Assembly: GCA_020634035.1 (NCBI GenBank)
Contig: JACKCM010000007.1
Span: forward strand, 42,508 to 106,507
Direction of reading: 5' to 3'
Length of the DNA: 64,000 bases
Origin: Candidatus Obscuribacterales bacterium
GTDB lineage: Bacteria > Cyanobacteriota > Vampirovibrionia > Obscuribacterales > Obscuribacteraceae
Below, piece after piece: positions 28,100 through 31,668 of the stretch (position 1 is its first letter; every line of letters starts with the position of its first letter). The position numbers and the translations under genes were made by a program. A model generated the notes under the pieces. That model had not been told where the DNA came from, did no database searches, and worked only from the letters and a program-made list of their open reading frames with translations.

Positions 28100-30568
28100 A
28101 TGCCTGCAGAAAAGAACATCGGAAAGACGGGAGACAAGGTCAAGCCGGACCGCACGGAGCGGACGGCTGACTCTACTGCTGCTGATTCTGTTATTGCCGG
28201 CGACCGAAAGCATGAGCACCAAGCGCTTCATCAGCATATGGAGAAGGCTGGCCATAACTTTGAGAGCTTTACGACCAAGTCTATCCCCGAGAAGCGCGGT
28301 GATGAGAGCGACGATGCTTACAGGTCTCGGTTAGAGAAACTGGCGGAAGGTGCGAATCCTCTTGTCCTGACCGATGGCGGAAATGTTGTCTATGACGGAG
28401 GCTCCAAGTTAAATCAAGCACTAGAGCGCTCGAAAGAGGCGTCAGTGCCGCTAGATCAACCGCAAAACATGGAGTCGAGTCAGCATCTGGCAGCCCTGGC
28501 TTCGGACAATCCCGCTCTGAAACCTGTGAGCCTATTGAGGGACTATGCTCAGGCGTTGCCGCCGGGTGAAGAGAAAGAGCGATTGATTGCTCTTTCCAGG
28601 CAACAGGCGTCGGAAGTATCGCCAGAGATGAAGGCTTACTACGGGGCTGAGAACTCATCTTCTCCTCAAGAAGGCAAGACTGCTGGTGCGATACCGGAGA
28701 GCATGCCGGAAGGCATTGTAGGTAAGACCGACGCAGGCTACAAACTTGATGTGGTGGTCCGAGAGAATGTGTTTGTCGAAGAGTCCAATGATATGGACTC
28801 TGGTGCAAGCCAGGATAAGATCAAACTTCAAAATGCCACAGGCGCAATATTGGAGACAGCAAGAGAGCGCTTTGGAAAAGAGAGCGTCGACAAGCTTAAG
28901 ATTGCTCCCGATGATGTAGGCAGCTCCATGACCGCTTTGTTGCTTGGTCCGGATATTTTTAATGTCATCGGACCAGAGCAAGCGAAGAGTTTTGGCAATC
29001 GCCTGCTCGTATTTGGGGTGGCACCCATCTTTGGCATGGCTCAGGAAGCGCAGAAAGCGATTTTCGAGAGCTCGGGGAAAACAGTTGAAGAAGGAGAAGT
29101 CAACTTTCTTGCTGGTACCGGCATCGGTGTCGTGCTTGAACGTGCGCATCCATTGATGATTGCGGGACTGACCCTGGGCTTCACCGGTCAATTCATCAAT
29201 GATCAGTTGAATTCACCCGAGAACAGCGCGAGAAATCGGGAAATTCTCGACATGTGTTCGAAGCTTGATGCTTCGGGTCCCGATGAGCTGGCCCAGTACA
29301 GCCGACGAACCAAAGAACTTCTCGGTCCTGACCTGTACAAGGGTGCGTTCGGAGTTGTCACCGGAGGCATCGGAATTCCGAAGGGGCATATAATCTCTGC
29401 CGAGACAAAGGCAGAGACTGAGGCAATTACTTCTGCCATTAAGCCGCAAGAAATTCTCGACAATATGAGTAAGCTTCCACAAGAAGCGTGCGATGCTCTA
29501 GCCTGGCTAATGGGTCACGAGGATGCGCCTCAGTATGCCTTCGCTCATGGTGGCAAAATTGAGCTGCCTCAGACCAAGGATGTTCTAGATGACACGAACA
29601 CAATGGCGATGGTTGGAGGCAATCCCTTTGAGTGGATAAAGTACCTTGGTAAACCGGCGCTGAATCCTAAGCTCGAACTGACCAAAGCCGTTGAGATGGC
29701 TGTAGAGACGATGGTCAAACCTTTGCCGGACGTTGATATGAAGAAGCTGTCCGAAGCTCTGCCCGATGCGGACCCTCGACAGATTGCTGAGCGATTGCAA
29801 AGCAGGCAAGAGCACTTTGACACCCTTGTCGATGCACTTGGGAAGTTGAAAGACCCGAGAGATTTACTAAAACTGTATGAAATAGGACATCGATTTCATT
29901 TTGTCGATCTCGATGAAGTCGGCCACGGATTAGGACGCCAAACCGCTGAAATTCCTCAGTCACGTGGTTTGAATCTGGAGTCACTGCCCGGAGTCACCAT
30001 ATTCGAGAAGGCTGATGGCAAGAAGGGAGTTACCATAATTCCAGAGCATTTTAAAGACAATAAATCGGGAGACTTGTTGCGAACAAAAGACTTACAAGTA
30101 CCTGATGTTGATGGTTCATTGAAACCGATTCGTATGGACGGACTGCTCAGGCATGAGGTTGGCCAAGCTTTGTCACAGATCCATGGATGGAAGGATATCA
30201 GCGTCGAATTGCCTGATGGTAGGCTCCGGTCCACTAATGACTTGTATCACCTGGGTAGGCAAGCACTAATTGATAGGCGTGAAAGACTAGGGGCCGAACT
30301 GGCTGAAATGTACAGAAGTTTGGAAACTTCCGGTCTCTCAGAAGTAGAGATCCTTAATTTCCGTGATTACCAAAAATTGGCTAATCGACAGGTCTTATTT
30401 GATAATCATATTGCTGGCAGCGAGATAGGATTAGAGCAGACCCTGGGCGATCTTTGGGCTATACATCAGGGGGGCTCATCTTACTCAGCCAACTTTGACG
30501 CAGACTTGATTGTGAATTTTAAGGAACTCTATGCATTTTTGAGTGAAAACAAGTGGTTCAGGAGATAG
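28100..30568 (+). CDS. polymorphic-toxin-like large protein (822 aa) with C-terminal RHEVGQ domain
   Basis: Its N-terminal leader contains DRTERTADS and HQHMEK, shared with the 723-aa protein. Its C-terminal ~150 aa are paralogous to those of the 865-aa protein (RHEVGQALS, GLEQTLGDLWAIHQGGSSY, ENKWFRR). Confidence 0.6.
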   Translation: MPAEKNIGKTGDKVKPDRTERTADSTAADSVIAGDRKHEHQALHQHMEKAGHNFESFTTKSIPEKRGDESDDAYRSRLEKLAEGANPLVLTDGGNVVYDGGSKLNQALERSKEASVPLDQPQNMESSQHLAALASDNPALKPVSLLRDYAQALPPGEEKERLIALSRQQASEVSPEMKAYYGAENSSSPQEGKTAGAIPESMPEGIVGKTDAGYKLDVVVRENVFVEESNDMDSGASQDKIKLQNATGAILETARERFGKESVDKLKIAPDDVGSSMTALLLGPDIFNVIGPEQAKSFGNRLLVFGVAPIFGMAQEAQKAIFESSGKTVEEGEVNFLAGTGIGVVLERAHPLMIAGLTLGFTGQFINDQLNSPENSARNREILDMCSKLDASGPDELAQYSRRTKELLGPDLYKGAFGVVTGGIGIPKGHIISAETKAETEAITSAIKPQEILDNMSKLPQEACDALAWLMGHEDAPQYAFAHGGKIELPQTKDVLDDTNTMAMVGGNPFEWIKYLGKPALNPKLELTKAVEMAVETMVKPLPDVDMKKLSEALPDADPRQIAERLQSRQEHFDTLVDALGKLKDPRDLLKLYEIGHRFHFVDLDEVGHGLGRQTAEIPQSRGLNLESLPGVTIFEKADGKKGVTIIPEHFKDNKSGDLLRTKDLQVPDVDGSLKPIRMDGLLRHEVGQALSQIHGWKDISVELPDGRLRSTNDLYHLGRQALIDRRERLGAELAEMYRSLETSGLSEVEILNFRDYQKLANRQVLFDNHIAGSEIGLEQTLGDLWAIHQGGSSYSANFDADLIVNFKELYAFLSENKWFRR

Positions 30569-30570
30569 CC

Positions 30571-31185
30571 ATGGAAAGAAGCAAATGGGCTCATTTGGTC
30601 GATAAGATCAGAGACGAGATTGAGAACAGTTACTTTACCTTTTGGGTTGCAGAGAATGGCGACCTGAGGGTCAGCACAGACTATGTCAATAATTCCTGGT
30701 CTGTTGTGACAGAGGAGATGCCTGAGTATCACGCGATTGAGGAATTGGCAGGTCCCCTGGAGCCTGGCTGTTGGTTGAACGGTTATGGATATGTTGGACG
30801 AGGAATTATGGAATGTGACTTGCGGTACATTGGGAAAGTGCCAAAACCTTCTAAGAAGAAGTGGAAGATTGTTGGTCAAACTGCCACGAACTACATGATT
30901 GCTGAATCAAAGCGTCCTCCCCAAATGGCTCTTGCTCCGAATAGTTTTGAGAAGCTTATGCTGGCAGGGTCTTACGACAAAATAGAAGTGTGCGAAGACG
31001 ATAGTTTCGATGTCTGGGATATGCTTATCGATGGGAAGGAGGGGGATAAGGTGAATTATCCGGGAGATTCGCCATTGAAGGGCGTTATAGAGAAGCACGT
31101 CGGTCCGCTGAAGCCAGGAGATGTAATAGACTTCGAGAAGCTTGGCGAGTACAAGTTCAAGATTCGAAAGCGACCGCTCGATTGA
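30571..31185 (+). CDS. putative cognate immunity protein A1
   Basis: It starts 2 bp after the toxin stop with an AGGAG RBS lying inside the toxin's 3' end. The N-terminus MERSKW and the PEYHAIEELAGPLEPG motif are shared with A2. Confidence 0.5.
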   Translation: MERSKWAHLVDKIRDEIENSYFTFWVAENGDLRVSTDYVNNSWSVVTEEMPEYHAIEELAGPLEPGCWLNGYGYVGRGIMECDLRYIGKVPKPSKKKWKIVGQTATNYMIAESKRPPQMALAPNSFEKLMLAGSYDKIEVCEDDSFDVWDMLIDGKEGDKVNYPGDSPLKGVIEKHVGPLKPGDVIDFEKLGEYKFKIRKRPLD

Positions 31186-31287
31186 GTTCTGGCTCAAGTA
31201 AGTTTTGAGAGTATCTGAAAATGACCACACATCAATGTAGTGCGTTGAATCTTTTGAACAAATCCACCACTGGATCAGGAGATAGCA

Positions 31288-31668
31288 ATGGAAAGAGAAA
31301 AATGGGAAGATCTTGTTCATGCTATTCGGGATGAAGTTCAGAATGGTTACCTTACATTGCTGATGCTGGAGACAGGAGATCTGAAAGTATCACGGGACCC
31401 GGTTGATAATCGATGTTGTCTCATAACGAGTGATATGCCTGAGTATCATGCAATCATGGAAGTGGTAGGTCCCTTGGAGCCAGGCTATTGGTTGAATCGC
31501 CACAGATATGTGGGTAAGGGCTTGAGTCCTATGGCGGATGATTTGAGGTACATCGGCAAAGTGCCAGACGACGTGGCAAAGAGTTCCAAAACATACGCCA
31601 ATCTTTCGGGCACAGGCATATTGACCAGGATTACTGAGCCTCCATCGATGGTACTCGACAGTGATTAG
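31288..31668 (+). CDS. putative immunity protein A2 (tandem paralog of A1)
   Basis: MEREKWEDLV...PEYHAIMEVVGPLEPGYWLN. Its upstream junction caggagatagcaATG copies the toxin-end/A1 junction. Confidence 0.5.
   Translation: MEREKWEDLVHAIRDEVQNGYLTLLMLETGDLKVSRDPVDNRCCLITSDMPEYHAIMEVVGPLEPGYWLNRHRYVGKGLSPMADDLRYIGKVPDDVAKSSKTYANLSGTGILTRITEPPSMVLDSD

Follow-up and report, generated by a model that had tools for sequence, protein, structure and literature searches.

A putative polymorphic toxin-immunity locus in Obscuribacterales with a probable relic of toxin-tip replacement

Gene content and layout of the locus

The contig JACKCM010000007.1 of Candidatus Obscuribacterales bacterium (GenBank assembly GCA_020634035.1), a member of the Vampirovibrionia (Melainabacteria), carries a cluster of three adjacent genes that is the subject of this work. 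We analysed it within a 64,000-nucleotide (nt) stretch of the forward strand (contig positions 42,508 to 106,507), which is called the window throughout and in which positions are counted from the first letter. The first gene of the cluster encodes T822, a protein of 822 amino acid residues, and is followed by two small genes, P1 and P2 (Table 1). As argued below, these probably represent a polymorphic toxin, its cognate immunity protein, and an immunity protein left behind when the toxic end of an earlier toxin was replaced.

The 3' end of the T822 gene reads TGG TTC AGG AGA TAG (W F R R stop), with the stop codon at 30566-30568. The sequence AGGAG inside its last codons (30560-30564) serves as the ribosome-binding site (RBS) for the P1 start codon at 30571, and the start codon of P2 lies at 31288. 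P1 and P2 are paralogs that share 61 of 123 aligned residues (50%; E 4e-41) and the motif PEYHAI..GPLEPG.WLN. The 26-mer TGGTTCAGGAGATAGCCATGGAAAGA occurs twice in the window at up to 3 mismatches, namely exactly at 30554 and with 2 mismatches at 31271, just ahead of P2, and it has 0 matches in each of 100 dinucleotide-preserving shuffles. On all these points, i.e. the coordinates of the open reading frame (ORF), its stop and the two starts, the RBS within the last toxin codons, the paralogy of the small genes and the near copy of the toxin-end junction before P2, the original prediction, which had been made from the letters of the window, was accurate. The junction composed of WFRR, stop, RBS and ATG is kept in all alleles, even in the locus L007 (loci of relatives are referred to by L and three digits, their proteins by P and four digits), whose T protein is 52% identical. 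Its recurrence in the window is hence due to constraint on an expression signal in addition to common ancestry. A scan for promoters and terminators around the locus gave signals no better than those of shuffles.

Table 1. Features of the T822 and T865 loci, in window positions
Feature	Coordinates	Strand	Basis or remark
T822, 822-aa putative polymorphic toxin	28100..30568	+	ORF; N-terminal region, conserved central domain, variable C-terminal module
Central conserved domain, glycine-rich, family-defining 'pre-toxin' part (T822 aa 262-432)	28883..29395	+	invariant alignment columns
C-terminal module, putative toxin domain (T822 aa 560-822)	29777..30565	+	alignment of 14 diverse members
Junction: WFRR codons, stop, embedded AGGAG RBS, P1 start codon	30554..30573	+	kept in every allele
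P1, 204 aa, putative cognate immunity protein of the A-type tip	30571..31185	+	downstream-gene comparison
P1-P2 spacer, probably the degenerate 3' remainder of a B-type toxin gene that was displaced	31186..31287	+	alignment to L006/L003
P2, 126 aa, putative orphan immunity gene, N-terminal domain only	31288..31668	+	orthologues after B-type tips
T865, 865-aa second putative toxin, in which an unrelated N-terminal scaffold bears the T822-type C-terminal module (aa 617-865)	52569..55166	+	BLASTP
Three tandem P1-family genes after T865 (55171-55647, 55647-56144, 56171-56695)	55171..56695	+	hhalign

A conserved central domain followed by variable C-terminal ends

Scans against Pfam and NCBIfam gave no meaningful match for T822, P1 or P2, in agreement with the original prediction, which could name no family for the two small proteins. 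The family of T822 is instead defined by its central domain, which has the signature DDVGS..LLGP..VFG.AP.FG..NF.AGT.IG..LERAHP..RN..LGP..TGG.G.P.G, is weakly hydrophobic (Kyte-Doolittle KD19 maximum 1.23) and is without a Pfam match. A profile search with the T822 family among 1.84 billion representative proteins recovered 90 relatives, about 60 of which match T822 in this glycine-rich domain of ~170 residues alone. The C-terminal ends that stand behind it fall into ~25 unrelated types, several of which can be assigned to known families: five relatives end in the Toxin-deaminase domain PF14424 (e.g. P0034, aa 589-634 of 673), P0047 ends in WHH and Colicin-DNase domains (aa 1199-1278 of 1286), five have DUF6932 as their C-terminal end, and the C-terminus of P0015 gives a sub-threshold match to Peptidase_C39. 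DUF6932 (PF22014) constitutes the C-terminal ~130 residues on two scaffolds of the toxin family (P0039 and P0091), and such recurrence as a C-terminal module on two different scaffolds suggests that this uncharacterised Pfam family is a toxin domain. A literature search found no mention of it.

The close homologues, which form 10 clusters for T822 and 10 for P1/P2, all come from metagenome assemblies, the few named ones being metagenome-assembled genomes (MAGs) of Candidatus Obscuribacterales or 'Cyanobacteria bacterium HKST-UBA01'. Three central-domain relatives emerged when a single genome for each GTDB species was scanned; all are from Melainabacteria and have other tip types, and one of them is Ca. 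Obscuribacter phosphatis. A scan of metagenome contigs with the alignment A8 returned one locus.

The C-terminal module of T822, referred to below as its tip, is always found at the C-terminus of the proteins that possess it, on at least two kinds of N-terminal scaffold; in T865, P0054, P0067, P0075, P0094 and P0095 it is present without the central domain. The alignment of 14 sequences shows as invariant H572, G681, R684-H685-E686 (encoded at 30149-30157), W697, G777, Q780, D784 (G777/Q780/D784 at 30428-30451) and G791-G792. The helix bearing RHE and the stretch EQT..D..GGS are conserved among alleles, the variation being concentrated in patches at residues ~608-660, 726-766 and 806-822. The invariant polar residues (RHE, EQ..D, GGS) look catalytic and suggest an enzyme, and the variable patches are the likely immunity-binding surface. 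The AlphaFold2 model of the tip is poor, with a mean predicted local distance difference test (pLDDT) score of 45, and a fold search with this model returned nothing. A zincin-like metallopeptidase (RHExxQ plus E....D) was considered and is no more than a speculative candidate: the second histidine is absent and Q690 (Q130 in the tip alignment A6) is not invariant.

The small-gene family follows the type of tip

The original prediction had posed the question of whether the C-terminal module and its small ORF co-vary across relatives, and comparison of gene neighbourhoods shows that the small-gene family indeed tracks the tip type. A P1-family gene lies 0-4 nt after every T822-type tip for which downstream sequence is at hand (L001-L007 and L017), and among these the P1-type gene is always directly 3' of the A-type tip, as we designate the version in the window, or of a related one. 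The C39-like tips are followed by an unrelated family of ~190 residues, present as three tandem paralogs in L010, one copy in L014 and two (92% identical) in L015, and the P0014-type tip and the tip of L013 each have still other small genes downstream.

The window itself holds a second instance of the pairing. T865 is 28% identical to T822 over 278 columns (BLASTP E 1e-21) in the C-terminal module alone and is without the central domain, and the three genes behind it encode proteins of 158, 165 and 174 residues with 28-35% mutual identity, which belong to the P1 family according to hhalign (probability 96.2%, E 2.6e-9). From the sequences compared here this appears to be the strongest single evidence that the small gene tracks the tip. 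The small-gene family thus co-varies with the tip type, and the recurrence of the same pairing on an unrelated scaffold implies that tip and small gene travel together as a cassette.

The AlphaFold2 model of P1 (mean pLDDT 62.5) consists of two similar alpha/beta domains, at residues 1-70 and 121-204. P1 accordingly looks like an internal duplication in which each domain bears a motif resembling H.I.E..GPL.PG, and P2 corresponds to the first domain only; free-standing ORFs corresponding to the second half of P1 also exist (P0018-P0020 and L016 1440-1763). Given that they have no hydrophobic segment, P1 and P2 are probably cytoplasmic. In L012 (82-1979) a P2-type gene adjoins genes on the opposite strand that encode a SUKH/SMI1_KNR4 protein, a classical immunity superfamily, and a DUF4253 protein, and this stretch may be an immunity gene island.

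Old tip alleles in near-identical strains

Some strains agree at 95-99% of T822 residues 1-560, yet over the final 120 residues their identity is 53-80%, and that of their small proteins 55-93%; the divergence is confined to the last ~220 residues of T822. The most informative comparison is with L006 (GCA_020431955.1), a near-clonal MAG contig that matches the window at 100% identity over 26001-28250 and 32451-34250 and in which a second version of the tip, here termed B-type, is followed directly by P2, with no P1. Between the T genes of the window and L006 the nucleotide identity drops from 1.00 to 0.57, and the identity at third codon positions is 0.30-0.35 in residues 751-822. The synonymous divergence (dS) amounts to 0.11 for residues 1-600 and 0.85 for residues 601-822, with saturation at the end, and the ratio of nonsynonymous to synonymous divergence (dN/dS) is near 0.2. 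That dS between the tips is saturated despite identical flanks indicates that they are old alleles exchanged by recombination, rather than products of rapid local divergence. In L004, the A-type tip is nearly identical to that of the window (dS 0.07) and the N-terminal part is more diverged (dS 0.24), which likewise implies that tips move between backgrounds.

The diverged block between the window and L006 extends from around residue 50 of T822 into the 3' end of a gene for a methyltransferase-HNH protein, at ~32450, and hence the whole T822-P1-P2 arrangement may have been imported together. Two other haplotypes are seen: in L001 a related tip (A') and P1 stand directly before the methyltransferase-HNH gene, P2 and the SPFH (Band_7) gene being absent, and in L016 the toxin and the first half of P1 were lost by a deletion of ~2.9 kb.

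A probable relic of tip replacement between P1 and P2

The product of P2 is 97.6% identical to that of the gene immediately 3' of the B-type toxin gene in L006, and 92% identical to its counterpart in L003. Homology to L006 detected by blastn resumes at 31265, 23 nt before P2, and this well-kept stub (31265-31287) reads ...QIHHWIRR-stop in frame, with stops upstream, and carries the AGGAG RBS of P2. The remaining 79 nt of the spacer are colinear with the B-type toxin ends of L006 and L003 (z 3.2-3.4, p 0.0025-0.0045), and they gave no colinear alignment with the toxin end of the A-type or of any other allele. When the spacer was compared with toxin ends by local alignment, the result was marginal (p 0.05), the colinear global test being clearer. 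P2 is intact, has kept its RBS and shows dN/dS of 0.16-0.41 relative to its orthologues, albeit from few substitutions, and it looks functional by these marks. A shortened form of the B-type arrangement is seen in L017 (238-1123), where the 83 final codons of a B-type toxin gene directly adjoin a fragment of an IS256-like transposase and are succeeded by a P2-type gene. Here an insertion sequence has created an orphan cassette of tip and immunity gene.

Where several immunity genes stand in a row behind a toxin gene, Zhang et al. (2012, PMC3482391) interpreted them as what tip replacement leaves over. Given the B-type-like spacer and the occurrence of the B-type toxin with P2 alone in L006, the locus is best read as the footprint of such a replacement, with P2 as a putative orphan immunity gene of the B-type toxin. 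Recombination would have brought the A-type tip together with P1 into a locus carrying a B-type toxin, and downstream of them the final ~100 nt of the displaced gene would have stayed, along with P2 as its immunity gene. The remnant of the old gene would then have decayed, except for the ~23 nt that contain the RBS of P2. By retaining P2, the cell would remain protected from neighbours still armed with the B-type toxin.

Functional interpretation and its alternatives

Taken together, we consider it probable that this is a polymorphic toxin-immunity locus of the Obscuribacterales, built from protein families not yet described, in which P2 is left from a tip replacement. The original prediction had also recognised a polymorphic toxin locus, and this reading gains support from the variable ends that include known toxin domains, from the small-gene family that tracks the tip and from the module on a second scaffold. 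Toxicity, neutralisation, export and biochemical activity are predicted from architecture and context. T822 would be an exported toxin in three parts. Export or target entry would be the role of the first two, the N-terminal part and the glycine-rich central domain, and toxicity that of the module formed by the last ~220-260 residues, in which R684-H685-E686 and E779/Q780/D784 are candidates for the active site. P1, translated from the RBS inside the last toxin codons, would act in the cytoplasm by binding and blocking the A-type tip, and P2 would be the immunity protein of the B-type toxin allele.

Several observations count against this interpretation. T822 has no signal-peptide-like hydrophobic N-terminus and no Pfam trafficking domain, and no secretion-system genes were found in the 64-kb window. 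The T822-type tip matched no known toxin family in Pfam, and a phmmer search with T822 and profile searches with the tip (A6) and the P1 family (A4) against the sequences of the Protein Data Bank (PDB) gave nothing below E 0.5. The homology check suggested with the original prediction thus left the small proteins without a Pfam or NCBIfam match, and the tip and P1-family profiles without a PDB sequence match. Tip divergence and small-protein divergence show no significant rank correlation when only the near-clonal set is considered (rho 0.42, n=10), and, with an average dN/dS of ~0.2 for the tip, pervasive positive selection is not demonstrated. The case for the spacer as a B-type remnant beyond the 23-nt stub is statistically modest (p ~0.003-0.005 with 8 comparisons). 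Finally, the relatives are metagenome contigs and MAGs, in which strain haplotypes might in principle be chimeric.

The alternative that fares best against this evidence, though we judge it unlikely, is that of a non-toxic co-evolving pair, in which T822 would be a secreted determinant of recognition or kin discrimination, or an effector acting on eukaryotic or prey cells, and the small proteins would be specific partners that bind it, adaptors or chaperones. In its favour, neither a toxin fold nor a toxin family is recognisable in the tip, the allelic variation in patches around a conserved core is of the kind seen in identity-determinant pairs, and some members of the class Vampirovibrionia are predatory. 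However, bona fide antibacterial toxin domains (deaminase, WHH/colicin DNase) form the ends of sister proteins that have this central domain, and the invariant polar residues of the T822-type tip suggest an enzyme. Moreover, occurrence in tandem arrays and as orphans is what one expects of immunity genes rather than of chaperone genes (PMC3482391).

With respect to the origin of P2, the original prediction had invoked a tandem duplication in situ of the 3' end of the resident toxin gene together with the small gene, the copies then diverging to 50% identity. This part of it does not stand up well, and we regard such a duplication as very improbable: P2 belongs with the B-type allele, its orthologues (92-98% identical) being the sole small gene after the B-type tip in L006 and L003 and a P2-type gene following the truncated B-type toxin in L017, and the spacer ahead of it resembles the end of the B-type toxin gene rather than that of the resident A-type. 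Moreover, synonymous sites between the A- and B-type tips are saturated within flanks that are 100% identical. A duplication would readily account for tandem paralogs with a near-identical 26-nt leader, and the P1 and P2 lineages must indeed have had a common ancestor in deep time; yet the junction is kept in all alleles, so that its likeness before the two genes needs no local duplication. The remaining alternative, an assembly artefact in which T822-P1-P2 is a chimeric join of A and B haplotypes at their common 26-nt junction, which could mislead an assembler in metagenome data such as those of the window and its relatives, is scarcely credible, since the 79 nt between the P1 stop and the common stub would not arise from such a join, the first 47 of them recur after the P1 remnant in an independent sample (L016), and the stub differs at two positions from the A-type and from the B-type junction.

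Genomic surroundings and possible export signals

The window looks like an accessory, mobile-element-rich chromosomal region: it contains genes of AbiE toxin-antitoxin systems, namely AbiEii at 11769-12836 and AbiEi with AbiEii as a pair at 34267-36004, and also encodes a DDE transposase and a Fic-domain protein (further coordinates 36372-37802 and 43141-44760). It also holds urease genes, and in the antisense orientation within the gene for the urease alpha subunit (16362-18080) lies a match to the Rfam 5' ureB small RNA (RF02514, 86 bits; 16515-16807, minus strand), which may merely reflect the conservation of the coding sequence. Upstream of T822, on the plus strand (19796-26617), is encoded a protein of 2273 residues without a family match, which displays an HEMTH (HExxH) motif close to its C-terminal end and, at aa 917-942 and 1127-1146, two segments that are hydrophobic and rich in glycine. 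Synteny of its gene with that of T822 is seen in L001, L004, L005 and L006, and the protein could be another secreted toxin. A relationship between this protein and T822 had been considered on account of HE motifs and TGG[IV]G segments, and is rejected as BLASTP shows no relation. The gene between the two encodes a coiled-coil transmembrane protein on the minus strand in the window and in L006, and a 291-residue DUF2442-like protein on the plus strand in L001, L004 and L005. Directly 3' of P2, on the minus strand (31748-34136), are the SPFH (Band_7) gene and the gene for the methyltransferase of 602 residues, which has a sub-threshold C-terminal match to HNH. The former is absent from L001 and falls inside the diverged block, and the latter is 100% identical to its counterpart in L006 except for its 3' end. 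Elsewhere, in L008 (3344-7780), the gene for P0014 (802 residues, with another tip) and a downstream gene for a protein of 202 residues lie between genes for a PqqD-like and a radical SAM/SPASM protein, which is a peptide-modification context.

Twelve proteins of the family with different middles and ends (P0013, P0015, P0028, P0036-P0042, P0049 and P0072) share the motif E..RTN[KR]HSGSAGGDQ..S[IV]E[IL] at residues ~27-80. It is also found in T865 (aa ~49-62, window position 52713), and is not clearly present in T822. This RTN[KR]HSGSAGGDQ motif may be an export or packaging signal. A more far-reaching proposal, which we offer as a tentative and on balance doubtful extension, is that the T822 family constitutes a Melainabacteria/Vampirovibrionia-specific delivery route for interbacterial, or predator-prey, toxins. 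The disordered N-terminal leader with an RTN[KR]HSGSAGGDQ-type motif and the glycine-rich central domain would then form a new device for export and membrane entry, the RHE/EQ..D module would be a new enzymatic toxin fold, and the small proteins that neutralise it would represent a new two-domain immunity fold.

Relationship to known systems

The likeness to the polymorphic toxin systems surveyed by Zhang et al. (2012, PMC3482391) is extensive. The N-terminal and central parts are alike and the C-terminal-most domain differs, which was the original hallmark of polymorphic toxins. The putative immunity gene is directly 3', cassettes are exchanged at the 3' tip by recombination, immunity genes are left over in strings, sister proteins have deaminase and HNH/WHH nuclease tips, and one toxin tip occurs on several N-terminal scaffolds (T865, P0054 and others). 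In contrast to those systems, none of the catalogued domains, such as TPS (two-partner secretion), RHS, PAAR, LXG, HINT or VENN, was detected; Pfam has no model for the central domain, for the T822-type tip or for the P1/P2 family; and no such system is known to have been described from the host phylum.

Displaced tip fragments with an immunity gene 3' of a full-length gene are also known as orphan modules of the CdiA-CT/CdiI and Rhs-CT/RhsI systems (for Salmonella orphan Rhs see PMC3967940; also PMC9086364), where, as here, a conserved sequence bounds the variable part and alleles differ between near-identical strains. However, the remnant of the old tip at the T822 locus comprises ~100 decayed nt and is therefore not re-usable as a toxin cassette. 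Unlike in contact-dependent growth inhibition (CDI), Pfam searches found no CdiB, TPS domain, filamentous haemagglutinin (FHA) repeats or VENN/pre-toxin boundary in T822 or its neighbours. Unlike in toxins of the Rhs/type VI secretion system (T6SS) and LXG/type VII secretion system classes, neither RHS repeats nor PAAR nor LXG was found with Pfam and NCBIfam, and no T6SS genes are present. The conserved boundary of T822 lies at its extreme 3' end (WFRR-stop plus RBS), and not before the tip as in CdiA and Rhs.

T822 and P1 further resemble the colicin E-type DNase/immunity pairs, which have a conserved catalytic core, allele-variable surface patches and small cytoplasmic immunity proteins that are translationally linked downstream. 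They differ in that no relation in sequence or fold has been shown, that there is no lysis gene or plasmid context and that the parts for receptor binding and translocation are unrelated. Immunity retained without a cognate toxin, presumably to resist neighbours, has a parallel in the orphan immunity genes and acquired interbacterial defence clusters of the Bacteroidales (PMC12247911, PMC10470768); those, however, are arrays at dedicated recombinase-associated loci against T6SS effectors, whereas P2 would be an orphan directly behind an active-looking toxin gene, as the footprint of a replacement. A type II toxin-antitoxin module, with its small intracellular toxin, a labile antitoxin that is usually encoded first and no architecture for export, differs from the present locus, in which the protein encoded first is an 822-residue, modular putative toxin and the small genes occur in arrays.

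Implications

The kind of system represented by this locus is well known; its component families and its host lineage are new. The host belongs to the non-photosynthetic relatives of cyanobacteria, and a literature search on Melainabacteria and Obscuribacter found no account of such systems. Four uncharacterised families are hereby offered for study, namely the central 'pre-toxin' domain, the toxin-tip module with its candidate catalytic motif, the two-domain immunity family and, possibly, the N-terminal export motif. The natural before-and-after pair with 100% identical flanks, i.e. toxin B with P2 as against toxin A with P1 and P2, makes the tip-replacement model directly visible, and the same contigs supply ready cognate and non-cognate pairs for work on specificity. 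Polymorphic toxins shape competition within bacterial communities. Given that Obscuribacter is abundant in wastewater phosphorus-removal plants, warfare between its strains may matter for the function of the communities in such plants.

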